From UHGV virus genome UHGV-0119636: a stretch of DNA of 27,711 bases; one strand, 5' to 3'. Source of the DNA: a virus. Position numbers and translations under genes: made by a program. The notes under the pieces are model-generated. The model searched no databases. It was not told the origin of the DNA and worked only from the letters and a program-made list of their open reading frames with translations. Positions 1 to 23,726 of this stretch are shown in pieces (positions within the stretch are counted from its first letter, which is position 1; each line of letters starts with the position of its first letter).

Positions 1-1854
1 GCTTTTAATCGCTTCAAAATTTACCATTTTATCTTCTCCTTTCGTCGGTAAACCAGAGCTAATCGTTGCGATGGGCAAATCATTACACTTTGTAAGTTTT
101 CTTCGTAATGAGCTTTTACCCGTGAACACTTTCACTTCGATGTGGTCGTCATAAATACGACTCAGTTTTTTCACATCTCCCGTATAAATATAATGAAGAT
201 GAATACCTCCACCACTTTTGCTTAACTCAGCATATGTTGGAGGCCATTTACTAGCTGCTTCAAGATTCTTCTCGAAACATTTATTACCATTCTCGTCCTT
301 AATATCAAAGTCAATAACTACATGATTTTCAGGGACCTTGACGTAATGAAGTTTTGATGTGTCAAGTTCTGATAGGGTAGTTGAAACTTCATCCCATGGC
401 TTCGTCGGAGTTTCTTTTGAAGTAGCATATTGAGCTGGACAATCAGAACATTCTTTATCAAAAATAGACTCCTGTTCTTCAAATATAAGCCAGCTCTCAG
501 TTTTCTCATCTCCAATAGGTTTCTCTGCTTTAACCTTTTTCTTCCCACCAATAGAGTCTTCGAAAATATCAGTCTTAAAACCGTCGTAATAACTCAGCAG
601 CTTACTTCCATCTTCTTTCTCCACCTTCTCATCAAATTCCAAAAAATAGTTTCTCAACTCGTCTTTGAATTTTGTCTTAGAAAATGGATACGGCACTTTT
701 GCTTCCTCACAGTAGTTTTTATACATCTCCCATGCTGCTTTTAGCGTAGTACCATCTTCTTTCTTGAAGACACTGAATGAATCACATACGAAGTTATAAA
801 AGTCATTAGAAGCCATAAGCATGTCCTTCGGAGCGTAAGTATCGTAATACTCTGGATCTTCTTTAAAGACTTGTAAACAATGATATGCGATTGCTCCCAA
901 CTCAAAATCAACCTGTTTGGTCAATCTACGATATTCTCGAATCGGTATCTTGTTTCCAGTAGGACGAACGTCAATCAAACGCCTTAGTAAACCAGACTTA
1001 GCATCAGTGATCTTAACAGGTGTGTTTGTACCCATAAATAAAAAACATTTGAATCTTGTTTCATATTGTCCTTTAAATTTTTCATTCATGGTCATTATCT
1101 CGTGTGAAATCACCGAGTTTAAGCGCGTATTATCTTCGATTTTTGATAAATCACCATCATGTTGTATCGCTACAAGAGGGTTATTCTTAAACGGTTCCAG
1201 AGCGAAAACATTATTCGGATTACCCAAAGCTTTTGCGTCAAAAGAACAACAATATCCTTCAAATAATTTCTCGATAATATTTATGATAGTTGATTTACCA
1301 GTACCACCAGCTCCGTAAAGCACCAGGAACTTTTGAAGTATTTTTGATTCCCCAGATACAACGGAGCCGATAGCCCATTCTATTTTACGTCGTTCTTCTT
1401 CGGAATATAGAGTACCGATGAGTTTATCCCATGCAGAAATATCGCCAGGTTCGAGAGGATACGGGAGTCTCTTGCTTGCGAAATTCTCTCTGCTTAATTC
1501 TGTGTTTGAAAATATAAGTTCATCATCGAGTACAGCAAAGTTATCACGCATCTGTTTCTGACAATATTTATGGAACTTATCGATTGAGCCACTGTCAGCA
1601 TCCCACATATACTTAATTACAGGAGTACCTTCAAGACGTCCTTCATTTTCAGCGACATATCTATCAAGTTCTCTATCTACAAGACGGGTTACATCGTCTT
1701 CATCTGTACTCCACATCTTTCGATCTTCATCCCAGATAGCGTAAAAGTCCCTACCTCGAATCATGAGATCTTTAGATTTCAACATTTTGAACTTAGGAGA
1801 AACATCAACACTGCTTTTATTCGTCTTCGTTGATACTGTCATGAAGTCCAACAT
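1..1854 (-). CDS. Replication protein, P-loop NTPase with primase-polymerase-like motifs (partial, continues beyond window start)
   Basis: Open minus-strand frame runs from ATG at 1854 off the left edge (618 codons). Walker A motif LYGAGGTGKST; later VIDFDIKDE and SGGGIHLHY resemble primase-polymerase catalytic motifs. SD AAGGAGG lies 11 nt upstream of the ATG. Confidence 0.7.
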   Translation of the reverse strand, partial: MLDFMTVSTKTNKSSVDVSPKFKMLKSKDLMIRGRDFYAIWDEDRKMWSTDEDDVTRLVDRELDRYVAENEGRLEGTPVIKYMWDADSGSIDKFHKYCQKQMRDNFAVLDDELIFSNTELSRENFASKRLPYPLEPGDISAWDKLIGTLYSEEERRKIEWAIGSVVSGESKILQKFLVLYGAGGTGKSTIINIIEKLFEGYCCSFDAKALGNPNNVFALEPFKNNPLVAIQHDGDLSKIEDNTRLNSVISHEIMTMNEKFKGQYETRFKCFLFMGTNTPVKITDAKSGLLRRLIDVRPTGNKIPIREYRRLTKQVDFELGAIAYHCLQVFKEDPEYYDTYAPKDMLMASNDFYNFVCDSFSVFKKEDGTTLKAAWEMYKNYCEEAKVPYPFSKTKFKDELRNYFLEFDEKVEKEDGSKLLSYYDGFKTDIFEDSIGGKKKVKAEKPIGDEKTESWLIFEEQESIFDKECSDCPAQYATSKETPTKPWDEVSTTLSELDTSKLHYVKVPENHVVIDFDIKDENGNKCFEKNLEAASKWPPTYAELSKSGGGIHLHYIYTGDVKKLSRIYDDHIEVKVFTGKSSLRRKLTKCNDLPIATISSGLPTKGEDKMVNFEAIKS

Positions 1855-4064: not shown

Positions 4065-5003
4065 TCAAATCATGTTGAGAATATCCCCATCCACATTGAA
4101 ATCAAGAAGAATAGTTCTCTCATAACCGTTCACGAAGTTACGATTTGCCTCGTTGTAAGTGTTATAGATTCCGAAATCTACGAAATTATCACCTACTGGA
4201 TGTTTCTCGTCATAAATCCATCCAACAATCTGACCTGCCTGTGTACGCGGGATTCCGAGCATATCATATACTTCATTCAGGAACAGATGACCTTTCGTTT
4301 TCAACATGTCATTTGCATAACGCTGCTGATCTTTAAGGAACATTAGATTGAATTCAGGATCTTTAGTCCATCCTGTACATCCATCATCGAAGAATTTAGC
4401 ATAATCGCTGTAACTGTCGAGAGTTGCTACATTTGCTGTTTTCTTAACAGTAGTTTCTGTACCATCTTCATTTACAACAGTCTCTTCGATTTCTTTTGCT
4501 TTGATGTTGTACTTCAGTTCTTTATCAAGCTCTTCACCAAATCTCTCAATAACACGACCACGATATTCCTTGAAGCCTTTGTCAATAGTTGCATAAGCGG
4601 CTGCAAGTGCTAAGTTACGTTTACGAAGAATATGATGACCACTAAGAATAGCAGCGATAGAAACTGTTCCAAGGATTACTGCTGGAGCATAAAGTTTTGC
4701 TACCTTTACGGCTGTTTGAGTATACATGATAGTTAAATCTTTCTTACCATCTTCTTCTGTGTACTCTTTACCTTCTGGAACCATATCTGGATTTTCCATA
4801 AATTCATGAATTTTCTCGATTTTTTCTTTTGGCTCAGCGAGCACCTCATCGAGTTTAGTAGTTGCTTTACATGCCATTACAGCAGAGCCAACTACACCAA
4901 CAATACCTGCGCCAACCAAGATTTCAGGGCTATGCTTTTTAAATTTAAAACCTACACGATGGAGGCTTCTAGTTACTGTGTTCATAATTTCTAATTTTGC
5001 CAT
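4065..5003 (-). CDS. Two-helix membrane protein, paralog family member A, 312 aa
   Basis: SD AAAAGGAGAG; N-terminal SPEILVGAGIVGVVGSAVMACKAT, second hydrophobic helix, RNLALAAAYA motif and conserved C-terminal domain shared with the genes at 7078-7905 and 9366-10133. Confidence 0.7.
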   Translation of the reverse strand: MAKLEIMNTVTRSLHRVGFKFKKHSPEILVGAGIVGVVGSAVMACKATTKLDEVLAEPKEKIEKIHEFMENPDMVPEGKEYTEEDGKKDLTIMYTQTAVKVAKLYAPAVILGTVSIAAILSGHHILRKRNLALAAAYATIDKGFKEYRGRVIERFGEELDKELKYNIKAKEIEETVVNEDGTETTVKKTANVATLDSYSDYAKFFDDGCTGWTKDPEFNLMFLKDQQRYANDMLKTKGHLFLNEVYDMLGIPRTQAGQIVGWIYDEKHPVGDNFVDFGIYNTYNEANRNFVNGYERTILLDFNVDGDILNMI

Positions 5004-7077: not shown

Positions 7078-7905
7078 TTAATAGTAGCTATCGAAACCAT
7101 ATTCCGGAGGCATCAGATGATCAATAACAATACACGGTTCATTATCTTCCGTAATTTGAGCACTATATCTCACATCGATTTTGCCTTTATCGATTCTCCA
7201 ACCGATGCTATTACCAACTTCGGTATGCTTAAGACCAATTTCGTCATAGAAATCATTCAGAGAAATATACATCTCGTTACCGTTGATCATTCTCTCATTA
7301 AGAGTAAGAACAGCATTTTTAATCTTGTCGATATCCGATCTGAAATATCTGTCGGAATGACTGTCATAACACAACGTGTTACCTTTACCTGTCATGATAA
7401 TCTGAGTGTCTGCAACCGGATGTTCTTCAACTTGCTTCTTAGCGACTTTATCTCTGATGTTATTTTCCTTCTTCTCTCCGATAGTCTCTACCACTTTCTC
7501 TCTGTAGTCAGACAGTGCTGTTGTAGATAACTGATATGCTGTTGCCAATGCTGCGTTACGTCTTACATGTACGGAATTAGCACCGATAAGACAAGCGACT
7601 GACGCAATGCCAGTGATAGCTGCTGGAATATAAGGTTTCCAAGCTGCTTTTACTGTTTCGACAGGTGTGAGATTTAAAGCGTTTCTTTCGTCTTCTTCTG
7701 TGAAAATACCGCCTTCATGAGCTTCTTTCTCTTTAAACTTCTTCTCTTCCTCGATTAACTCCATAGCTTTTGGTGTTGCTTTTACTGCAAGCACAACAGT
7801 AGATATCATACCTGCGATACCAATGCCAGTAAGAATTTCCGGACTGCGTTTTTTCATTACATATTTTGCAGTGTTTAAAAATTTTGTTACATTTGGTTTG
7901 TTCAT
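7078..7905 (-). CDS. Two-helix membrane protein, paralog family member C, 275 aa
   Basis: SD GAAAGGAGA; SPEILTGIGIAGMISTVVLAVKATPKAMELIEEE N-terminus almost identical to the 9366-10133 gene; conserved C-terminal domain. Confidence 0.7.
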   Translation of the reverse strand: MNKPNVTKFLNTAKYVMKKRSPEILTGIGIAGMISTVVLAVKATPKAMELIEEEKKFKEKEAHEGGIFTEEDERNALNLTPVETVKAAWKPYIPAAITGIASVACLIGANSVHVRRNAALATAYQLSTTALSDYREKVVETIGEKKENNIRDKVAKKQVEEHPVADTQIIMTGKGNTLCYDSHSDRYFRSDIDKIKNAVLTLNERMINGNEMYISLNDFYDEIGLKHTEVGNSIGWRIDKGKIDVRYSAQITEDNEPCIVIDHLMPPEYGFDSYY

Positions 7906-9365: not shown

Positions 9366-10133
9366 TCAATACTCTTCGTAATCAATGAACGGCTCTGTGA
9401 AATCTACAATATAACATTCAATACCGTCGTCCATTTCTACTTTTGTATGGTGGAAATATAGCCAACCATCCCAGTACATTTCATACATCTGAGCTGCGGA
9501 CCAACCCATAAATTCACCGTAATCCTGTCGATCAATCTCTAGTAAATCGTAATAATCGTTTAAAGATGCACCACCGGATTGAGATAGCATTTTATTAATC
9601 TCATACTCTGCTCTCAATTGAGTTTCTTTCGTCACACGGTAATAACGTTTGGAATATTCATCGTAGAATAGTGTTTTGCCATCCTCGTATTCGTCGTCAT
9701 ATTCTTCTTTGTCTTCTTCCTCGTAATGGTCTTTTGCTACAGCAGCACGAATGAGTTTGTCTCCGTCTTCACCATATAACTTTTTAACTTTGTTTTTGTA
9801 CTCTTTGTGAGTTTGGTCTAGTAAGGCATAAGCAGATGCGATGGCTGCTTGGGAATGTTTGTTTAATAGATTCGCGCCAAATATGCAAGCTAGGGTTCCT
9901 GTTCCAATCAATAAGGAAGGAATATATGTTGGTCCTGCTACTCGAATAGTCTCCCATTTTGTTAATTCATCTCCTTTCTCTTCTTCAGCTAGTTCAATAA
10001 GTTCCATTGCTTTCGGAGTAGCTTTAACCGCCATTACAGCTGTACCTACCACTCCGGCAGCTCCTAATACTGTTAATATAGTAGAGCTGTTTTTCTTTAC
10101 GAATCTTTTCGAAACTGTTAGTAAGTCATTCAT
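9366..10133 (-). CDS. Two-helix membrane protein, paralog family member B, 255 aa
   Basis: ATG at 10133 with SD GGAG 10 nt upstream (ORF-track start at 10142 is GTG); N-terminus SSTILTVLGAAGVVGTAVMAVKATPKAMELIE; conserved C-terminal domain. Confidence 0.7.
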   Translation of the reverse strand: MNDLLTVSKRFVKKNSSTILTVLGAAGVVGTAVMAVKATPKAMELIELAEEEKGDELTKWETIRVAGPTYIPSLLIGTGTLACIFGANLLNKHSQAAIASAYALLDQTHKEYKNKVKKLYGEDGDKLIRAAVAKDHYEEEDKEEYDDEYEDGKTLFYDEYSKRYYRVTKETQLRAEYEINKMLSQSGGASLNDYYDLLEIDRQDYGEFMGWSAAQMYEMYWDGWLYFHHTKVEMDDGIECYIVDFTEPFIDYEEY

Positions 10134-10252
10134 TTCCAGCACGCTCCTTGGCGATAAATTTGGTAAAAATAAAAAGAGAAAGAAAAGAGTCAGCTTGTTG
10201 TGTAAACCAAGTCTAACTCAATTCTTTTTGTCATTATCCGAAATAACAATAT

Positions 10253-16088: not shown

Positions 16089-16685
16089 ATGACAATAGGA
16101 CAAAAAATAAAAGAATTACGCAATCAACTTAATATGTCGGTGGATGATCTTGCTGTGAAACTGGGTAAGAACCGTGCGACTATCTACCGCTATGAACGAG
16201 GAGATATCGAGAACCTCCCTCTCGATGTACTAGAACCATTAGCAAATGCTCTTGAGACCACACCTGGTTATTTAATGGGATGGGAAGAAACTACGAAAAA
16301 GAAAGAGCCTTCAATTATCGATGAAGTTACCATGGGTGACGTTTTTAAAGCGTTACGTCTAGGAAGTAATTTATCGATAGAGGAATTTTCGCATGAGATT
16401 GGATTATCTGCCCAAGACATAAGCAATTATGAAGCAGGAAAGACTCCTATACCTGTAAATATAATTAATCTTGTTGCTGATTTCTTTGGCATATCAATAG
16501 CGGAAATAGTTAAGGCACACAAAAACAGCGAAAATAGAACGCCTTCTGGTTTCGAAATGAAAAAGGAACGATTTGAACGTTTTAAAGTTTGGAATAAAGA
16601 GTTTGGACGAATACATTTTACTGATGAAGAAATCAATAAAATAATGGAATATACAAGGTTCTTACTTAGCCAAAGAAGACAGTAA
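16089..16685 (+). CDS. Tandem-HTH XRE-family repressor-like regulator, 198 aa
   Basis: SD AAAGGAG; two XRE-type helix-turn-helix units (residues about 1-65 and 80-140); no peptidase S24-like C-terminus seen. Confidence 0.75.
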   Translation: MTIGQKIKELRNQLNMSVDDLAVKLGKNRATIYRYERGDIENLPLDVLEPLANALETTPGYLMGWEETTKKKEPSIIDEVTMGDVFKALRLGSNLSIEEFSHEIGLSAQDISNYEAGKTPIPVNIINLVADFFGISIAEIVKAHKNSENRTPSGFEMKKERFERFKVWNKEFGRIHFTDEEINKIMEYTRFLLSQRRQ

Positions 16686-16770
16686 GTCTACATAGGTTTA
16701 CTCTATTTAAAGGAGGTGATGCCTGAATTCAGTTCATCGTAGAATTTACATCAAAGGAAAGGTGGAACCA

Positions 16771-18348
16771 ATGACAACGTTTGATATGAACAACGCTGTA
16801 GACAATGCGTTCGGTATGGACGTATATGCTATCTATCTTCGGAAAAGTCGAGCCGATGTAGAAGCAGAAAAACTTGGAGAAGGAGAAACACTAGCAAGGC
16901 ATAGAAAGATACTAACAGAACTTGCTGCTAGAAAAGGATTGTATATCGGTAAGATTTACGAGGAAATTGTATCTGGTGAAACAATCGAAGCTAGACCTGA
17001 AATACAAAAACTGATAGAAGATTGTTATAAAGGGAAATATAGAGGAATCCTAATAGTAGAAGTTACTCGTCTATCTCGTGGTAATCAAGGAGACGCTCAA
17101 AAAATACTCGACTGTCTCAAATATTCGAATAGAAACAATGGTGTATTAGTTATCACTCCTACTAAGACTTATGACGTTGCACACAGCCAAGAAGACGAAG
17201 AATATATGGAGTTTGAATTGTTTATGTCTCGTCGAGAATATAAGATGATTCAAAAGCGTATGGATCGTGGCCGTAAACAAGCAGTCGTAGAAGGAAACTT
17301 CATGGGTAGTTACCGTCCCTATGGATATGACATCTTAAAAACCAAGACCGGACGAACACTTATACCGAATGAAGATGAAGCTCCTATCGTGAAAATGATT
17401 TACGAATGGACAGTTAACGATAATTTATCTCCTTTCAAGATAGCTGAGCGTTTAACTAATATGGGTGTTCCTACTTATTATGGTGAGAAGGATTGGTCTA
17501 AAGAAACAGTTAAAACCATTTTGACGAATCAGACATACATGGGTAAAGTTCGTTGGAATGATCGAATGACTGTTAAGACTATGGTCGACGGAGAACTTAA
17601 AGCTACACGACCTCGTTCAAATCATTCCGATCACTTCATGCTATATGATGGAAAACATATGAAACACGCACTCGTCGACGAAGAAACATTCAAAGCAGCC
17701 TCCTCTCGCTTTCATAACGATAGGACAAGATCAAATCTAAAACTTGTTAATCCTCTTGCAGGACTTCTATTTTGTAAGAAATGTGGTAAATCTATGGGTT
17801 ATCAATCATATAGACATAAGAAAAACGGACCAATGGATCGATACAATCATAGACAGTCTGCTAATGGATGCAAGGTTAAGTCAGCAGTTGCTGAGGATGT
17901 TATAAAAGCTGTTATACATGCTTTGAAACTTTATATAGAAGATTTCGAATTTAAGTTAGACAACACTCCAGATGTTGACGAAAATTCAATCAATACGCAG
18001 CTCGAAGCTTTACAAAAAGAAATACGAAAATCCGAACGAAAACTTGCTAAGCTATTCGATTCTTGGGAAGATGAGAAGATAACAGATAATGAATTTGTTC
18101 AAAGGAAAGCCGTCCATAATCAGAAGATAGAAAATATAAAGAGGCAAATGGAAGAACTCGAATATTCGATACCAGAAAGAGAAGAATATGAGGATAAAAT
18201 AATATTGCTGTCTGAAGCACTTGTCGCTATCACAGACGAATCGCTTGACGCAGATATTAAGAACGAGTATCTTAAAAGAATCATTGATAGAATAGAGTTT
18301 AGTAGAGAGAATAACTCAGAGTTTATACTAGATATAGACTTATGCTAA
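16771..18348 (+). CDS. Large serine recombinase (integrase-type), about 525 aa
   Basis: ATG at 16771 after AAAGGAAAGG (track start 16762 is GTG); N-terminal YAIYLRKSR catalytic-serine region, Cys-rich zinc-ribbon CKKCGK...C, C-terminal coiled coil. Confidence 0.8.
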   Translation: MTTFDMNNAVDNAFGMDVYAIYLRKSRADVEAEKLGEGETLARHRKILTELAARKGLYIGKIYEEIVSGETIEARPEIQKLIEDCYKGKYRGILIVEVTRLSRGNQGDAQKILDCLKYSNRNNGVLVITPTKTYDVAHSQEDEEYMEFELFMSRREYKMIQKRMDRGRKQAVVEGNFMGSYRPYGYDILKTKTGRTLIPNEDEAPIVKMIYEWTVNDNLSPFKIAERLTNMGVPTYYGEKDWSKETVKTILTNQTYMGKVRWNDRMTVKTMVDGELKATRPRSNHSDHFMLYDGKHMKHALVDEETFKAASSRFHNDRTRSNLKLVNPLAGLLFCKKCGKSMGYQSYRHKKNGPMDRYNHRQSANGCKVKSAVAEDVIKAVIHALKLYIEDFEFKLDNTPDVDENSINTQLEALQKEIRKSERKLAKLFDSWEDEKITDNEFVQRKAVHNQKIENIKRQMEELEYSIPEREEYEDKIILLSEALVAITDESLDADIKNEYLKRIIDRIEFSRENNSEFILDIDLC

Positions 18349-18408
18349 ATGGTGGCTTTGCTGCCTGTAAGACCTGCACTAAAATGGTGTAGGTAACTTT
18401 TTCCCCGA

Positions 18409-18458
18409 CATATATATCATGGTTGTGTTTCTTTTATATCGCCACCATGATATATATC
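18409..18458. repeat. Inverted repeat CATATATATCATGG / CCATGATATATATG, 22-bp spacer; candidate attP or operator
   Basis: 13 of 14 bp match; sits just after the recombinase stop and before the small paralog genes; a second inverted pair TGGTGGC/GCCACCA flanks it. Confidence 0.3.
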
Positions 18459-18504
18459 ACAGGGAAACTATTCTAAACGTTGATATATCAAGGAGGAGAT
18501 ATAC

Positions 18505-18756
18505 ATGAGAATAGTATGGAAAGACAGTGCGCCTAAAACAAAACCTTGGTTGACGTTCAAATATAGAGAACATATCGTTAGCCAATATGGAGATGGATGG
18601 ATTACCGATATACCTGGTGATAACAATATCTATTTTCCGAGAGAGTGTGCTTATAATGCAATCGATAAGTCTCTAGGTGGAAAGACACGAAAAGCTAATC
18701 CTCAAAGACATAAATTAGGAATAAAAGTTATTGGTAGAAAGGACGATGTATCATGA
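18505..18756 (+). CDS. Small protein, MRIVWKDS family, copy 1, 83 aa
   Basis: Strong SD AAGGAGGAG; stop overlaps the start of copy 2 (ATGA). Confidence 0.6.
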   Translation: MRIVWKDSAPKTKPWLTFKYREHIVSQYGDGWITDIPGDNNIYFPRECAYNAIDKSLGGKTRKANPQRHKLGIKVIGRKDDVS

Positions 18757-19004
18757 GAATCGTATGGAAAGATAGTCATAAGCCAAAAGAATATGAACCT
18801 ATGAAATATCGAAATATTTACATCTTCGGTACTCCTGAAGGATGGGAAGTAAATATAAAAGGAGATAATAATCTATACAAGACTCATTACTGTGCTATGA
18901 ATGCGATTGATGATTACTTTGGAGATTTTGGAGAACGTGGTACAGAAAAACGTAAACGATATGGAATACAAATAATAGGTAAGAAAAATGATGAGACTGC
19001 ATGA
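18753..19004 (+). CDS. Small protein, MRIVWKDS family, copy 2, 83 aa
   Basis: Shares MRIVWKDS, GW, GDNN-Y, CA-NAID and GI-IG-K-D motifs with copy 1. Confidence 0.6.
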   Translation: MRIVWKDSHKPKEYEPMKYRNIYIFGTPEGWEVNIKGDNNLYKTHYCAMNAIDDYFGDFGERGTEKRKRYGIQIIGKKNDETA

Positions 19005-19012
19005 ATCTCAAA

Positions 19013-19046
19013 AGCCACTTCCTTTTCTGGAGGTGGCATATTTTTA
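19013..19046. terminator. Bidirectional intrinsic terminator between convergent genes
   Basis: Hairpin GCCACTTCC-TTTTCT-GGAGGTGGC followed by ATATTTTTAT; lies between the plus-gene stop at 19004 and the minus-gene stop at 19053. Confidence 0.6.
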
Positions 19047-19052
19047 TCTAGG

Positions 19053-19595
19053 TTAGACATTTCTATTTTCGTATGACGTAAATTTTACATTTGTGTACTC
19101 GTTAACCAAAAAGCTACATGCTTCATTAACTGTTTTAACGACGGATTCCCCTTCTATATAACTCTGATAATTCCTTCTTTGATTTTCAAATTTAAGATCA
19201 GGTTCAACCATGGTATCTACACTTAACCATATTAGTTCCGTAGTATAGTCTTCGGTAAAATATCCTTTTATAAAAACCTCTTTCTTTCCAACCGTTCCGA
19301 TTAGTTTTATAAACGACATATCATGCTTCGTCAGATTAAACGCATATCTTATTCCTTTTACATATTGCCCGCCAAGTTTCCTCGACTTAATTGTTTCATA
19401 GTAATTATCTTTATTGTTGTTCTTTTTATGCCACTCATCCGATATACAAATCCACATTAAAAGTTCGCTTAAAGTTGCAACCATGGATATGCTATTTTGT
19501 TTGTCGCTTGTGCTTAAATATTCATGAAATCTTTTATGAGATTCTCTTAATCCATGGTTTATATACATTAGCCTAAATTCTTCGACACTATTCAT
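19053..19595 (-). CDS. Hypothetical protein, about 180 aa, accessory (moron) candidate
   Basis: ATG at 19595 after SD AGGAGGA; no peptidoglycan-hydrolase motifs recognised; own promoter region with the palindrome GGAAATTTCC upstream. Confidence 0.55.
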   Translation of the reverse strand: MNSVEEFRLMYINHGLRESHKRFHEYLSTSDKQNSISMVATLSELLMWICISDEWHKKNNNKDNYYETIKSRKLGGQYVKGIRYAFNLTKHDMSFIKLIGTVGKKEVFIKGYFTEDYTTELIWLSVDTMVEPDLKFENQRRNYQSYIEGESVVKTVNEACSFLVNEYTNVKFTSYENRNV

Positions 19596-19662
19596 TATCT
19601 GCATTCCTCCTTTTATCGTAATATTCGACCATATAGGAGAAATTTCCTTTTAACCATATGAA

Positions 19663-19700
19663 GAAAAATAAAAGGGGCTGTTTTATTCGCCCCAATTATT
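19663..19700 (-). terminator. Intrinsic terminator after the lysis operon
   Basis: Stem GGGGC/GCCCC with A-tract and T-tract on either side, immediately after the stop at 19701. Confidence 0.55.
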
Positions 19701-20009
19701 TTACATCTTGTGTGAAATCTCCTCGCAATGCTTTTCCAATGATTTGATTCGTTCTTCGTGACCCTGATTTTGAATTTTCAGCTCGTCTATTTCAGATCCA
19801 TGATTCGTAACCCGAGTCTTCAAGTTATTAATCATCTCGGTCAAGAAGTTTATAGTCGCGTTGAGTTTGATTATGTTTTCGTTTAGCTTTTCGATAGGCT
19901 CATTTTTAGAATGTTCTTCCTGAGTAATATCCTTCCTCAGTTTCATATAGAAAGCGAACACTGAGCCTATGACTGTTAAGACAATGATTATAACTTGATT
20001 CTCTGCCAT
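19701..20009 (-). CDS. Membrane-anchored coiled-coil protein, 102 aa, lysis-associated
   Basis: N-terminal helix VIIIVLTVIGSVFAFY, then a coiled-coil-like remainder; start 3 nt after the holin stop. Confidence 0.55.
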   Translation of the reverse strand: MAENQVIIIVLTVIGSVFAFYMKLRKDITQEEHSKNEPIEKLNENIIKLNATINFLTEMINNLKTRVTNHGSEIDELKIQNQGHEERIKSLEKHCEEISHKM

Positions 20010-20011
20010 AG

Positions 20012-20305
20012 TTATTTTTCCTTCGCTGTATTATTATCGTCTTTCTTACCTTCTACAAATCTACTAAATCCCTGATGTAGACCTGTAGATGCCAGACCCA
20101 TAACTGCACCATATACGATGGAATCGACAGAGATGCCGCTTACTGCCGTATTCAATGCTGCGCCGACAACAGCCAGGATGACTGGAATATCGTCGTTAGG
20201 GATACGTTTTAAAAAAGTCGCATGTTTGATGATATATCCAACCACCAGACAAGCGACCATTACTACAAGTACGAAATGTTCAGTTAAAATTTTTGCGAAA
20301 TCCAT
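20012..20305 (-). CDS. Putative holin, 97 aa
   Basis: Three hydrophobic segments (FVLVVMVACLVVGYII, IPVILAVVGAAL, IVYGAVMGLASTGL) and a charged C-terminus; placed after the tail-fibre genes. Confidence 0.5.
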   Translation of the reverse strand: MDFAKILTEHFVLVVMVACLVVGYIIKHATFLKRIPNDDIPVILAVVGAALNTAVSGISVDSIVYGAVMGLASTGLHQGFSRFVEGKKDDNNTAKEK

Positions 20306-20329: not shown

Positions 20330-20965
20330 CTAATTAACTTTTTCCCATCCAGCAGGATATGCCTCAGGGGAGTACACGTTGTTATCGATAAGTGAAACGT
20401 ACTTCTCGTTATTGAATGTTATCTTATCTCCCTTTTTATATGCCGTCTCAGCGTTGATCGGCTGTTTAAATTCTGGATACTCAACGTTAGGATCTGAGAT
20501 TTCAACATACAAGGACGGAGAAACATCCGGCTTCCATTCTTCAGTAGATGTGAACGGATCTGACGCGACAACCTTATAGAATTTATCCTGATAGATAAAG
20601 CGATCTCCTTTGCTATATGTAACTCCCACAACATATTCCGGATACATATATCTCATAATATAAGCATCTTTGTCAGAAGCTTGTTTAAGTGTAAGATCGA
20701 ACTGCAACTCTTCAAGTTTCTTAGTTCCTTCTTCGATAGCTGCTTCTTTTTCTTTTTCTTTCAGGATATTATTGTAATGCTCTTCGTCATAAACTAGATG
20801 GTATTTCTTATCCTCTTCGTTAAGTTTCAAAGCATAACAATGTAATTTGGAAAGATCCACAACAGTATCATCGAGAATCGCACAAATATAATTATTGCGT
20901 AATTGACGAAGAGAAATGTTAGTTATCTCTCCATTGACGTTTTCCGCTTCAACATAAACATTCAT
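20330..20965 (-). CDS. Hypothetical tail/lysis-associated protein, 211 aa
   Basis: ORF track; C-terminal repeated YSKGDRFIYQDKFYKVV / YKKGDKITFNNEKYVSL units. Confidence 0.55.
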   Translation of the reverse strand: MNVYVEAENVNGEITNISLRQLRNNYICAILDDTVVDLSKLHCYALKLNEEDKKYHLVYDEEHYNNILKEKEKEAAIEEGTKKLEELQFDLTLKQASDKDAYIMRYMYPEYVVGVTYSKGDRFIYQDKFYKVVASDPFTSTEEWKPDVSPSLYVEISDPNVEYPEFKQPINAETAYKKGDKITFNNEKYVSLIDNNVYSPEAYPAGWEKVN

Positions 20966-20981
20966 TGCTCATCACCTCCCC

Positions 20982-21317
20982 TTAAACATCAACAGCCCCC
21001 GTATAGGAAGGCTGAGTTTTTAACCAATCGTATGCATTTTGAATTAGATCGCCTATAAGTAGTTTCTGAGCCTCATCCCATTCAATGCTAAGATAATCCA
21101 TGTTGGTGTATGGAAAAGATGGCTCTCCTATGATTCTACCAGCCATATAATCCTTATCGTATTGACGACCTTCTTTATCAATGTACGATTCTACAATAAT
21201 AGTAGCTCGCTGATTAATTTCTACGTTAATGGCGGCAATATGATGATAGCTTACTACTACACCATTAGCGGTTTTAATGTTTACTTCTATAGCCAAAATA
21301 TCACTCCTAAACTCCAA
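20982..21317 (-). CDS. Small tail-fibre-associated protein, 111 aa, paralog of the 23747-24028 gene
   Basis: Shares YH-I, IN-, SYID and AY-LKT-P--GA-D motifs with the 93-aa protein; follows a fibre gene. Confidence 0.6.
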   Translation of the reverse strand: MEFRSDILAIEVNIKTANGVVVSYHHIAAINVEINQRATIIVESYIDKEGRQYDKDYMAGRIIGEPSFPYTNMDYLSIEWDEAQKLLIGDLIQNAYDWLKTQPSYTGAVDV

Positions 21318-22440
21318 TTACTTGTCTAAGAACAAACCTGTTATTGGTATAAGCAACTCCATTGTTTCCCTGTCCGGTATAGTTATTTTCAACCCCACCG
21401 GTGAGTTTGCCATCAGATATGTTCAATACTTTAACACTCGCATATCCGCAAACTTCAGACATAAGCGTGAAACACCACGGTTTTCCTGAGTATGTAGAAA
21501 CAGCGCTTTTAGGCACGAAGAAGCTATGTAATCTTGTATTAGTAGCAGACCCATTATAATAGTCAGAGAATATCAATACGATTCCATGAGGTTGATTTGA
21601 TACAGGGCTACTAAAAGTTATGGTATGAGTATTACTCGGCCATAAACTTCCGGTCCATAGTGTATTATTTGTAAACCTTTCGGTAACTGAACCTCTTACA
21701 AAGCCATTATCAGCAGTAAACGTCATAGCAGTTCTGATACTGTGAGGGGAATATGAATCTGTTGGGGTCATGAGAAAATAATTTTCGCTACTCCCATCAA
21801 CTTTTCTAGCAAACATTTTTACTGTAGGACTGACTCCTCCTCTATCCCCTTTAACGCTAACATAAGAAGCCACACCATCGTGTGACTCAAAATTTGCTAA
21901 CATATCAGCAATATCTGCTCTTAATACCACGCGATACTCTCCATCATAGCGGCTAGTGTAAATTGTTTCAGTAGTTGAGGCAGCATTAGCTTCGTATGTA
22001 ATGATTGGATCATCATCATCTTCGAAATAAACGAGAACATCGTCTGTAAATGCTTCATCGTTTTCGATGACTAAAGTACCTTTTACAGTAGATATCTTAC
22101 CTCTACCGTTATTCATGGATATTACTGTATTATCTGAATTTTTCCCGAGATCTATTAACGATTCACCAAAAGTAGCCAACTCAGTAATTCCGTTTCTCAT
22201 TTCGATGTCTGTACTACTAATAAGAATATTTCTGCCAAGAGTTGATGTTCTCTTATCAGCAACCATAAGTCCATTAGCATCGAAACCGAGGAAGTTTGTA
22301 GCGGTTTTAGCAGCTTCTACAGCCTGACCATAAGGATCAATCCAGCTACTCCATGTTGAAGTTGAAGTTCCAACACGCCAATATTCTTTTCCAGTACCTT
22401 CGACTTTGGCTGTCTGTCTCGGATATTTTTGTACGGCATA
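21307..22440 (-). CDS. Tail fibre / receptor-binding protein, C-terminal segment; frame open upstream of its first ATG
   Basis: Frame is open from the TGA at 22441-22443 to the stop at 21307; the 58 codons before the first ATG (22266) are protein-like (GTGKEYWRVGTSTSTWSSW) and match the fibre repeat module. Confidence 0.55.
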   Translation of the reverse strand, partial: YAVQKYPRQTAKVEGTGKEYWRVGTSTSTWSSWIDPYGQAVEAAKTATNFLGFDANGLMVADKRTSTLGRNILISSTDIEMRNGITELATFGESLIDLGKNSDNTVISMNNGRGKISTVKGTLVIENDEAFTDDVLVYFEDDDDPIITYEANAASTTETIYTSRYDGEYRVVLRADIADMLANFESHDGVASYVSVKGDRGGVSPTVKMFARKVDGSSENYFLMTPTDSYSPHSIRTAMTFTADNGFVRGSVTERFTNNTLWTGSLWPSNTHTITFSSPVSNQPHGIVLIFSDYYNGSATNTRLHSFFVPKSAVSTYSGKPWCFTLMSEVCGYASVKVLNISDGKLTGGVENNYTGQGNNGVAYTNNRFVLRQVIGV

Positions 22441-23726
22441 TCAGTTCGTAAATGACAGTAAGTCCCTACTCCAGACAATCCTATAGTAGAACAATACTTG
22501 AATTCGGCAACTGATGTACTAGGATAATTATTTATGTAATATAGCGGCGGGTAATTCGAATTTTTGGTATCTTTTACGTCAAGTCCGTCGCCTTTTGGTC
22601 CTTGTGGTCCAGTAGGTCCTTGTGGTCCTGTTGCGCCTGTACTACCAGTTTCTCCTCGTGGTCCAGTAGGTCCTTGTGGTCCAGTGGCTCCTGTGGCTCC
22701 GGTGTTACCAGTAATACATACACCATTAGATGATGGAGTATATGATGTAGTGTTGTCTGTGTACGTTACCAGTGTTCTTCTCCAAATATACTTTCCATCA
22801 GCCCACGTAGGTTGACTCGTACTCCATGATCCACCTGTTAATGTTGTCGGGGAATTGGATGAATAGAACTGTTCTTGTGTACTTTTTATGGTAGAACCCA
22901 GTGTTACGCTCAATCCATTAGCAGTCTGTTCTAGAGTAGAGACCTCGCCTTCCAAATCTGTTACTTTCGAACTTAAACCACTGGCAGTCTGTTCTACCGT
23001 ACTAACCCTGTTTCCAAGAGAAGTAGTTTCCTGTACATTTGCTTCTATTCTGTCAGCATTTTGATCGATACTGGATTTAGCGTTTGTTAGATCTGTAGTG
23101 AGCTTCGATACATCCGAAGTTAAGCCATCAGCAGTCTGTTCAAGCGTGCTTGTCCTGACACCTAATTCATTTGTGGCGTTCACATTTGCTGTAATACGTT
23201 CTCTTTCTATGTTCAGATCAGCTTCGTACTCCGTTCTGAGGTCATTCACGGCTTCCCATGAACTATCACAAACTGGGCTTGTGTATGCATTTGACGTTGG
23301 GTTCTTATACGTAATGAGATATCTCGTCCATAAATACATACCAGTAGACCAGGTAGGCATGGAAGTTACCCATGACCCGCCTGTCTGTGTTGTTTTGGAA
23401 GTGCTTAAATAATATTGCTGAGTGATGCTATCAATGCCAGTACCAGTAGGACCCTGAGATCCTGTTGCCCCGTCGGTTCCATTCTTAGGTATGTAAGATA
23501 CTGAATATGTTGTAGATGTATCACCCTCTGTATATGTAATGACGGTTCTGCTCCACAAATACTGTCCAGGTGATACAGAGGGGATTGTCGTACTCCATGT
23601 ACCGTTTGGAGGATTTGTGCCTGACGTACCAGCCTGATAAGTTATGACTGTGGATGTAATTCCCTTGCCGTCTATTCCGTCTATAATGTCCGAGATAGTA
23701 ACCTCGGCTTTAGCTATCACAGCCAA
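22317..23726 (-). CDS. Tail fibre protein with collagen-like Gly-X-Y repeats, 469 aa in this frame
   Basis: TTG start after SD AAAGGA; GATGATGPQGPTGPRGETGSTGATGPQGPTGPQGPKGDG; repeated LEQTA-GL and GGSW-TS-PTW modules. Confidence 0.7.
   Translation of the reverse strand: MAVIAKAEVTISDIIDGIDGKGITSTVITYQAGTSGTNPPNGTWSTTIPSVSPGQYLWSRTVITYTEGDTSTTYSVSYIPKNGTDGATGSQGPTGTGIDSITQQYYLSTSKTTQTGGSWVTSMPTWSTGMYLWTRYLITYKNPTSNAYTSPVCDSSWEAVNDLRTEYEADLNIERERITANVNATNELGVRTSTLEQTADGLTSDVSKLTTDLTNAKSSIDQNADRIEANVQETTSLGNRVSTVEQTASGLSSKVTDLEGEVSTLEQTANGLSVTLGSTIKSTQEQFYSSNSPTTLTGGSWSTSQPTWADGKYIWRRTLVTYTDNTTSYTPSSNGVCITGNTGATGATGPQGPTGPRGETGSTGATGPQGPTGPQGPKGDGLDVKDTKNSNYPPLYYINNYPSTSVAEFKYCSTIGLSGVGTYCHLRTDMPYKNIRDRQPKSKVLEKNIGVLELQLQHGVAGLILMVRL
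22585..22712 (-). repeat. Collagen-like nucleotide repeats inside the fibre gene
   Basis: ggtccttgtggtccagtaggtcc occurs twice with related units between. Confidence 0.5.

Follow-up and report, generated by a model that had tools for sequence, protein, structure and literature searches.

The virus genome UHGV-0119636 is represented by a temperate phage fragment of 27,711 bp with a GC content of ~37%; this entire stretch of DNA is referred to here as the window. Three open reading frames (ORFs) on its minus strand, between positions 20305 and 19053, encode a 97-amino-acid (aa) holin (20012..20305), a 102-aa protein with an N-terminal membrane helix and a long coiled-coil helix (19701..20009), and a 180-aa orphan protein (19053..19595). 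From high to low coordinates, the minus strand carries tail and tail-fibre genes, these three genes, and then early and replication genes. This is the usual order for temperate phages of Firmicutes (structural, lysis, lysogeny, early); thus, an endolysin gene could reasonably be expected after the holin gene, as it was in a first-pass annotation of the window. That annotation described a holin-like gene without a recognizable endolysin nearby, a membrane-anchored coiled-coil protein of 102 aa, and a protein of roughly 180 aa without amidase, CHAP, muramidase or peptidase motifs. The description was borne out on each point: the three ORFs are present on the minus strand, a Pfam scan for lysins was negative, the 102-aa protein has the hydrophobic segment and helical model detailed below, and the 180-aa protein lacks any Pfam or NCBIfam match. 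At least 14 independent contigs from the human gut carry the trio in this order, with low ratios of nonsynonymous to synonymous substitution rates (dN/dS; 0.085-0.17 for the holin, 0.10 for the 102-aa protein and 0.04-0.075 for the 180-aa protein). Taken together, the shared gene order and low dN/dS indicate that all three genes are real and under purifying selection.

The holin and its probable membrane-anchored partner

Judged from its sequence, the 97-aa protein is a bona fide and ordinary member of the Hol44 / Phage_holin_5_2 family. It matches the Pfam model PF16079 with an E-value of 1.2e-11 (45.1 bits against a curated cut-off of 29.2) and phrog_1129, annotated as holin, with an E-value of 1.3e-21. 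Hydropathy analysis places two hydrophobic segments at approximately residues 10-26 and 40-58, ahead of a charged C-terminus (EGKKDDNNTAKEK); both the length and the hydrophobic segments are those expected for the family, and no notable difference was found. The holin is 66-78% identical to those of related phages, and its gene is the penultimate one in the late (tail-fibre and lysis) gene string.

The start codon of the 102-aa gene lies 2 nucleotides (nt) past the holin stop codon. Its product, labelled TMCC for its architecture, contains one hydrophobic segment (residues 6-22) followed by the residues KLRKD; the positive charges behind the helix point to a cytoplasmic location of the coiled coil. 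Structure prediction, proposed as a check in the first-pass annotation, returned a single uninterrupted helix spanning residues 2-101 (AlphaFold2; predicted local distance difference test, pLDDT, of 93). The best match is phrog_1009, of unknown function (E-value 1.7e-8); a match to phrog_1193, annotated as hemolysin, has an E-value of 0.003, and all Pfam matches are sub-threshold hits to coiled-coil families (SlyX, XhlA and others). Several further assignments were rejected. Membership in the XhlA/gp24.1 family (PF10779) fails on score, at 20.3 bits against a cut-off of 34.7 (E-value 6.5e-4, covering coiled-coil residues 58-98 only), and on topology, the membrane helix being at the N-terminus and not the C-terminus. 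A reading as an Rz-like spanin was set aside given only weak PHROG matches (E-values 0.005-0.009), no lipoprotein partner gene and Gram-positive nearest hosts, and PADLOC matches (LmuB, DruC and others) were treated as coiled-coil noise. An IMG/VR search with the 102-aa protein gave no result.

Proteins of this architecture regularly accompany related holins. In 67 of 80 IMG/VR loci with a related holin, the next ORF (within 60 nt) encodes a protein of 71-160 aa with an N-terminal hydrophobic helix followed by a charged or coiled-coil region, an architecture common to several sequence types. Approximately 35 ORFs just downstream of related holins carry lysin domains (Amidase_2 in 16, Amidase_3 in six, CHAP in six, Hydrolase_2 in four, GH25 in two, and ELLD and Glucosaminidase in one each), and the loci without a downstream lysin run straight into the integrase or other genes. 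The 102-aa protein is homologous to an 88-aa type present in the related loci L100 and L041 (loci of related phages are designated by L numbers), with a BLASTP E-value of 5e-5 and the common positions P38, L42, I46, L49-N50, I53, R66, H70-G71, I74-D75 and L77; no similarity was detectable to the 100-aa type of the related prophage MT835495. In L041, the 88-aa type comes after a holin of an unrelated family (64 aa), which indicates that such proteins are regular companions of holins whether or not an endolysin gene is adjacent. The proposal that the genes next to the recombinase are accessory therefore does not suit the 102-aa gene.

Two-part holins of this general kind have been described. In the PBSX system XhlA-XhlB (with XlyA) and the SPP1 system gp24.1-gp26, each protein is harmless alone, whereas together they kill and lyse the cell (PMC6316719; PMC5589764). 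XhlA and gp24.1 carry their membrane helix at the C-terminus (PMC6316719), and enterococcal lysis cassettes have been cited alongside XhlA/gp24.1 analogues (PMC10630273). As in PBSX and SPP1, a small one-helix coiled-coil protein is encoded beside a two-helix holin in the window, by coupled genes and in a pairing that recurs across most of the related loci described above. Unlike in PBSX and SPP1, the membrane helix is N-terminal, the holin gene precedes that of its partner, and no endolysin gene is adjacent. Another parallel is found in cluster F1 mycobacteriophages, in which the two-helix, holin-like LysF1a and LysF1b, a protein with one N-terminal helix (predicted N-out, C-in), are both needed for efficient lysis (PMC13056207). 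The arrangement of a two-helix holin and a partner with a single N-terminal membrane helix is the same, but there is no sequence relationship, and the hosts of those phages are mycolic-acid-bearing actinobacteria. By analogy, the 102-aa protein is likely to work like XhlA or SPP1 gp24.1, i.e., as the second part of a two-part holin. On the same basis, the N-terminally anchored coiled-coil proteins encoded after holins of two unrelated families would be a large, uncharacterized class of probable lysis proteins.

The late operon closes after the 102-aa gene with an intrinsic-terminator-like hairpin on the minus strand (19664..19702), in which GGGGC, a 10-nt loop and GCCCC are followed by TTTTATTTTT. 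The hairpin has a predicted RNA folding energy of -16.9 kcal/mol (z -4.1 relative to shuffled sequences) and is identical in L005, L007, L009 and L012. It was missed by a terminator consensus scan because its loop is longer than 8 nt.

An endolysin slot among the tail genes of related phages

All window ORFs of 45 aa or longer (58 in total, among them the two truncated by the contig ends) were scanned with Pfam, and none contained a peptidoglycan-hydrolase domain; tblastn searches of the six frames of the window with ten different lysins from relatives yielded a best E-value of 0.49. An exact-protein match identified the window as an entire metagenome contig (ENA ERZ1755778 NODE_485, coverage ~3). 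The matching part of an 81,861-bp contig (ERZ19693800 k109_3767, the 82-kb contig hereafter) is 99.8-99.9% identical to the window, which is thus a piece of a phage of at least ~82 kb, with over half of the genome outside it. No lysin-domain gene was called in positions 6064-49288 of the 82-kb contig (43 kb of the window lineage).

MT835495, a prophage with a bacterial flank, is the sole relative found in INPHARED by DNA or protein, and the match is confined to the holin (66% identity). Its end is ordered as tail fibre, 92-aa gene, holin, 100-aa anchored coiled-coil protein, reversed 78-aa gene and bacterial DNA, with no lysin there. A scan of all its ORFs revealed one protein of 321 aa with Amidase_2 and SH3_3 domains, a typical architecture for a Gram-positive endolysin. 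Its gene is found 20 kb upstream, with a tail-chaperone-like gene on one side and, on the other, a 125-aa gene that comes before the tape measure gene.

The same position, immediately before the conserved 125-aa gene and the tape measure gene and 14-20 kb from the holin, serves as an endolysin slot in other relatives. Slot loci were collected by anchoring on the large tail protein after the tape measure (26 IMG/VR loci, 40 metagenome loci and six further IMG/VR loci). The slot holds GH25, CW_7 and LysM domains in L022, L128 and L129; GH25 and LysM in L038-L042; ELLD and PG_binding_1 in L047; Amidase_2 and SH3_3 in L024, L025, L034, L044 and L045, as well as in L252 and L253, where the assignment is by 52-53% identity to Pfam-checked lysins; and an Amidase_2-like protein in L132, L138 and L162. 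Those N-termini of slot lysins that were read show no signal peptide or membrane anchor, which would make the enzymes holin-dependent and would fit endolysins rather than virion proteins. The 125-aa protein between the slot and the tape measure (MISFRxKGDFSK...; L022:1919-2296, with homologs in L025, L041, L047, L252 and others) is strictly conserved and has no Pfam or NCBIfam match. Separately, a holin-like protein of 71-73 aa (MKMxxKVYDVLK...GTLYFALA...) is encoded in two relatives (L043:2655-2870 and L031:18250-18471); the L043 copy is located within or close to the endolysin slot, suggesting that complete lysis cassettes are able to relocate to it.

Fifteen contigs show the slot together with the region past the holin, whether within a single locus or across overlapping ones. 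In thirteen, the slot contains a lysin and the holin is not followed by one (MT835495; L022+L100; L252+L048; L025+L082; L045+L078; L044; L034; L047; L038-L041; and L253, as far as the locus reaches); there, the holin is followed by a small anchored protein and then by genes of 78-84 aa and the integrase or bacterial DNA. In the other two (L027+L103 and L046+L102), the slot is empty, and a 543-aa protein, PG_binding_1-like at its C-terminus, is instead encoded two genes past the holin. No contig has a lysin in both places, and none lacks it in both. Since the window has the layout with nothing after the holin, a slot lysin is to be expected. In the 82-kb contig, the gene for the 2,515-aa tape measure protein starts at ~765 and the end of the window maps to ~14,174, which places the slot ~13.8 kb past the window end and at the very start of the 82-kb contig. 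This tape measure protein (L248:1-2249) contains PG_binding_1 besides TMP_3.

Host indicators are consistent with a Gram-positive bacterium. The nearest holin in GTDB (75% identical) belongs to an uncultured Lachnospiraceae bacterium (L168), where holin and partner lie at a prophage end; in Eubacterium ramulus (L171), the order is Amidase_3-like gene, holin and partner; and homologs of the MT835495 lysin carry names from Lachnospiraceae and Tyzzerella. The host is thus likely a member of the Gram-positive Clostridia and probably of the Lachnospiraceae. Past the prophage end of L168 (L168:10897-20276), the GC content rises from ~36-42% to 57-58%, which could reflect either a true host flank or a chimeric contig of a metagenome-assembled genome.

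The explanation that accounts best for these observations, to which we assign a probability of roughly 0.7, is that a temperate phage infecting a Gram-positive Firmicute of the gut has a split lysis system whose distal end lies in the window, with the holin pair here, the endolysin in the tail-gene slot and the 180-aa protein as unrelated cargo. The late operon ends with the Hol44-type holin and the translationally coupled 102-aa protein, followed by the terminator. The two proteins would act jointly as a two-part holin, as do XhlA-XhlB and gp24.1-gp26, and would set the time of the membrane breach that lets out a cytoplasmic endolysin lacking a signal peptide. As in the relatives, the gene for this enzyme would be part of the tail-gene cluster, with the second chaperone-like gene on one side and the 125-aa gene before the tape measure on the other, and the 180-aa gene behind the terminator would be a separate, exchangeable element with no part in wall degradation. 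Among the three possibilities raised in the first-pass annotation, an endolysin encoded outside the window is consequently the best supported, given the incomplete contig and the 13 relatives with a slot lysin, although the slot of this phage itself is extrapolated.

Several observations weigh against this explanation. The slot of this phage falls outside the readable sequence, as the 82-kb contig appears to begin inside or just after the expected lysin gene. The 374-aa and 457-aa tail-fibre proteins of the L022/L100 contig are 94-98% identical to those of the window, but further upstream than the 374-aa gene, DNA identity between the window lineage and its GH25-bearing relatives is only ~68-70%; thus, the type of lysin and, strictly, even the presence of one in the slot are extrapolated for this phage. 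On account of this drop, near-identity of L022-type phages to the window over their whole length was rejected. Two of the 15 contigs have an empty slot, as described above. The role of N-terminally anchored coiled-coil proteins in holin function is argued by analogy, the XhlA match being sub-threshold and the XhlA helix being at the other end. Finally, a sigma-70 scan found no promoter for the 180-aa gene.

The strongest rival, itself improbable, is that this phage has no endolysin at all, either as a decaying prophage or as one in which membrane damage from the holin pair works together with host autolysins. Consistent with this, none was found in the 43 kb read, and two holins co-produced alone kill Bacillus subtilis, after which lysis follows (PMC6316719). 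However, ~39 kb of the 82-kb contig lies outside the part that was read, the slot falls within the unread part, and the relatives with the same layout have a slot lysin in 13 of 13 cases. Moreover, the phage is nearly unchanged in many samples and its holin pair is under strong purifying selection, which argues for an active phage.

The 180-aa protein at the integrase end

The longest ORF of the third gene extends to 19604 (183 aa), and its second ATG is probably the true start: GGAGG lies 10 nt upstream of it, and the same start was chosen by gene callers on 14 related contigs. The exact 183-aa product is absent from protein records, since the shorter start is the one that gene callers use. 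A 96-nt spacer with GGAGG separates the gene from the terminator hairpin. The 180-aa protein has no match in Pfam, PADLOC, NCBIfam or PDB sequences, and its sole PHROG match is phrog_30856, of unknown function (E-value 4.7e-5). Close homologs number only 12 among 5.8 billion clustered proteins, and a profile search of 1.84 billion 50%-identity representatives (~15 billion proteins) extended the family to 113 clusters, nearly all single-domain proteins of 150-180 aa. None of the 82 family members examined against Pfam has a meaningful match, no lysin annotation occurs across the 113 clusters, and the family profile returned nothing, or chance matches only, against PDB sequences. Searches of IMG/VR with the protein and an exact 40-mer, and of GTDB with the family, gave no result.

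AlphaFold2 models the 180-aa protein as a soluble helical bundle with one beta-hairpin (pLDDT 83; predicted template-modelling score 0.81), and no membrane segment, signal sequence or wall-binding module was found. A Foldseek search of this model against PDB and BFVD gave nothing significant except one viral protein of 177 aa (template-modelling score 0.6); the fold matches are to generic four-helix bundles, and none is to wall hydrolases. Within the family, His91 is invariant and Asn87, Trp48, Tyr66, Gly81, Trp123 and Tyr143 are nearly so. The motif is GLRxAxNxxKH, with a few members reading RNxxxH.

In all five lineages for which context is available, the gene occupies the end of the late-gene string nearest the integrase. 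In L001, L004 and L006, it converges directly with the serine recombinase gene, and in the window type only two 83-aa genes lie between. Its neighbors on the other side vary: the 102-aa gene in the window type, an Amidase_3 endolysin gene and then an RNA-ligase-like gene in L001, and other small ORFs in L004 and L006. The L001 homolog (186 aa, 66% identical) therefore coexists with a holin-adjacent Amidase_3 endolysin, and the one gene between them, directly upstream of the homolog, encodes an RNA_ligase (PF09414) protein (L001:9248-9883). In L100, a close relative, the holin pair is kept and the 180-aa gene is absent. On the strength of sequence comparison and the structural model, the 180-aa protein is firmly judged to be neither a wall hydrolase nor the product of a core lysis gene; it would instead be encoded by an exchangeable cargo gene in a variable spot beside the integrase and attachment site. 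For this gene, the earlier suggestion of an accessory gene next to the recombinase fits.

What this cargo might do is a matter for speculation. The conserved residues provide a weak hint of a HEPN-like active site, and the family could conceivably represent a histidine-dependent, HEPN-like helical-bundle cargo of temperate Firmicute phages, expressed from the prophage as an RNA-targeting toxin or a superinfection-exclusion factor; on balance, this is unlikely. At eight residues, the distance from the conserved Arg to the His exceeds that of the Rx4-6H rule of HEPN proteins; in this Rx7H spacing, Asn87 is 94% and Arg83 72% conserved, and the members P0202 and P0250 read RNHILH and RARLVH. When the model was compared with the HEPN toxins 5yep_B and 7ae2_A from the PDB, unrelated four-helix bundles scored equally or higher, and no HEPN match was significant in Foldseek. 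Likewise, no HEPN model in Pfam matches any of the 82 family members. If the HEPN-like reading were true, the RNA-ligase-like gene of L001 would belong to the same theme of RNA damage and repair.

A role in lysis other than wall degradation is somewhat less probable than a phage without endolysin. As an antiholin or lysis-timing factor working with the holin pair, the 180-aa protein would be suitably placed near the lysis genes, on the same strand and kept together with the pair in the window lineage. Nevertheless, it has no membrane segment, its gene lies behind the terminator, and what is conserved is its position at the integrase end rather than beside the holin, the intervening genes being different in L001, L004 and L006. 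Furthermore, the gene is absent from all 160 holin-anchored loci from IMG/VR and GTDB.

On the other side of the holin, a 211-aa protein with CBM_5_12 carbohydrate-binding modules (20330..20965, minus strand; Pfam E-value 3.2e-9) is encoded by the final gene of the tail-fibre region, and Pfam detects no catalytic domain in it. Adjoining the holin and carrying carbohydrate-binding modules, it superficially resembles a modular endolysin, with the modules as wall anchors and a small, unrecognized catalytic N-terminus. This is very improbable: the N-terminal part comprises only ~90 residues, mostly of predicted coiled coil and without a family match; the gene follows tail-fibre genes, and the neighboring 319-aa protein has tail-fibre matches. 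In addition, homologs (227-275 aa in relatives) are present in two copies in L005 and in L100, whose contig (L022) has a full GH25 endolysin.

Least probable of all is that the 180-aa protein is a novel lytic enzyme replacing the canonical one, as the first-pass annotation had also considered: the gene sits roughly where Gram-positive phages usually keep the endolysin gene, and the window holds no known lysin, but the coexistence with Amidase_3 in L001, the absence from L100 (which has the GH25 lysin elsewhere), the conserved terminator that parts the gene from the lysis genes, the confident helical-bundle model without hydrolase likeness, wall-binding module or signal sequence, and the lack of lysin annotations in the family all speak against it.

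The large serine recombinase, the phage integrase, is encoded on the plus strand at 16762..18348 (Pfam Resolvase, Recombinase and Zn_ribbon_recom; phrog_95, E-value 1e-91), and a double helix-turn-helix repressor is encoded on the same strand at 16089-16685. Downstream of the integrase gene, two tandem paralogs of 83 aa (18505..19004, plus strand) are 42% identical to each other and have no family match in Pfam, PHROG, PADLOC or NCBIfam; homologs in L047, L100, L041 and MT835495 show that they are conserved across the phage group. A hairpin between the convergent 180-aa and second 83-aa genes (19014..19037), found by the terminator scan, has a 9-bp stem with six GC pairs, a T-run on the plus strand and, on the minus strand, TTTTGAG after it; it is likely a two-way terminator. 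MT835495 passes from prophage to bacterial DNA immediately next to its 78-aa gene, a homolog of the 83-aa genes, which places the phage attachment site (attP) between the integrase and 83-aa genes and makes the variable spot a prophage end. In the window, attP would thus probably fall within 18349-18504, and the 83-aa genes would probably end up at the prophage end opposite the integrase.

Other features of the window are peripheral to lysis. Tail and tail-fibre genes occupy the minus strand from 27711 down to 20330, and early and replication genes that below 15512. A tail-fibre gene (21307-23726, minus strand) forms one uninterrupted ORF of 810 aa in the 82-kb contig (99.9% identical); in the window, two small indels totaling 13 nt break it into ORFs of 469 aa and 319 aa. 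At a coverage of ~3, the cause of this split may lie in the assembly and not in a genuine frameshift. The early region contains three paralogous DUF6353 genes on the minus strand (4065-5003, 7078-7905 and 9366-10142; E-values 1e-58 to 4e-89), a triplet also present in L001, L004, L006 and L016. Positions 1-1854 (minus strand) encode the first 618 aa of a DUF5906 primase/helicase-like protein (1,408 aa in full), which is truncated by the contig start; in L016, the DUF5906 gene is followed by an Nlig-Ia gene and a gene for a single-stranded DNA-binding protein.

Relation to known split lysis systems and implications

The separation of holin and endolysin genes is familiar from virulent phages of Gram-negative hosts: T4 (e and t) and T7 (3.5 and 17.5) keep the two many kilobases apart. 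The group described here differs in that its members are temperate phages of Firmicutes, relatives often have a classic adjacent cassette, and the lysin occupies a fixed slot inside the tail-gene cluster. It further differs in that at least four catalytic types are exchanged in that slot. For the mycobacteriophage D29, a recent report describes lysis genes in separate genome regions, one of them beside the tape measure (bioRxiv 10.64898/2026.08.27.747656); unlike in this phage group, the gene by the tape measure encodes a one-helix protein and not an endolysin.

These findings do not overturn the current understanding of phage lysis; rather, they describe an ordinary system with an unusual gene layout. 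Mildly new are, in this group of gut phages, an endolysin slot at a fixed place next to the tape measure in which lysin types are swapped, the breadth of the N-terminally anchored class of holin partners, and the uncharacterized 180-aa family. For annotation, a holin without a neighboring endolysin in a phage of gut Firmicutes should not be taken to mean a missing or novel lysin. The slot on the tape-measure side is predictable, and automated pipelines may call the enzyme found there a tail protein or miss it. With at least four catalytic types, the slot is also a convenient source of endolysins against Lachnospiraceae, and the N-terminally anchored holin partners can be tested by co-expression. 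Lastly, the 180-aa family offers a small, well-folded orphan at a position where prophages usually carry genes that benefit the lysogen.

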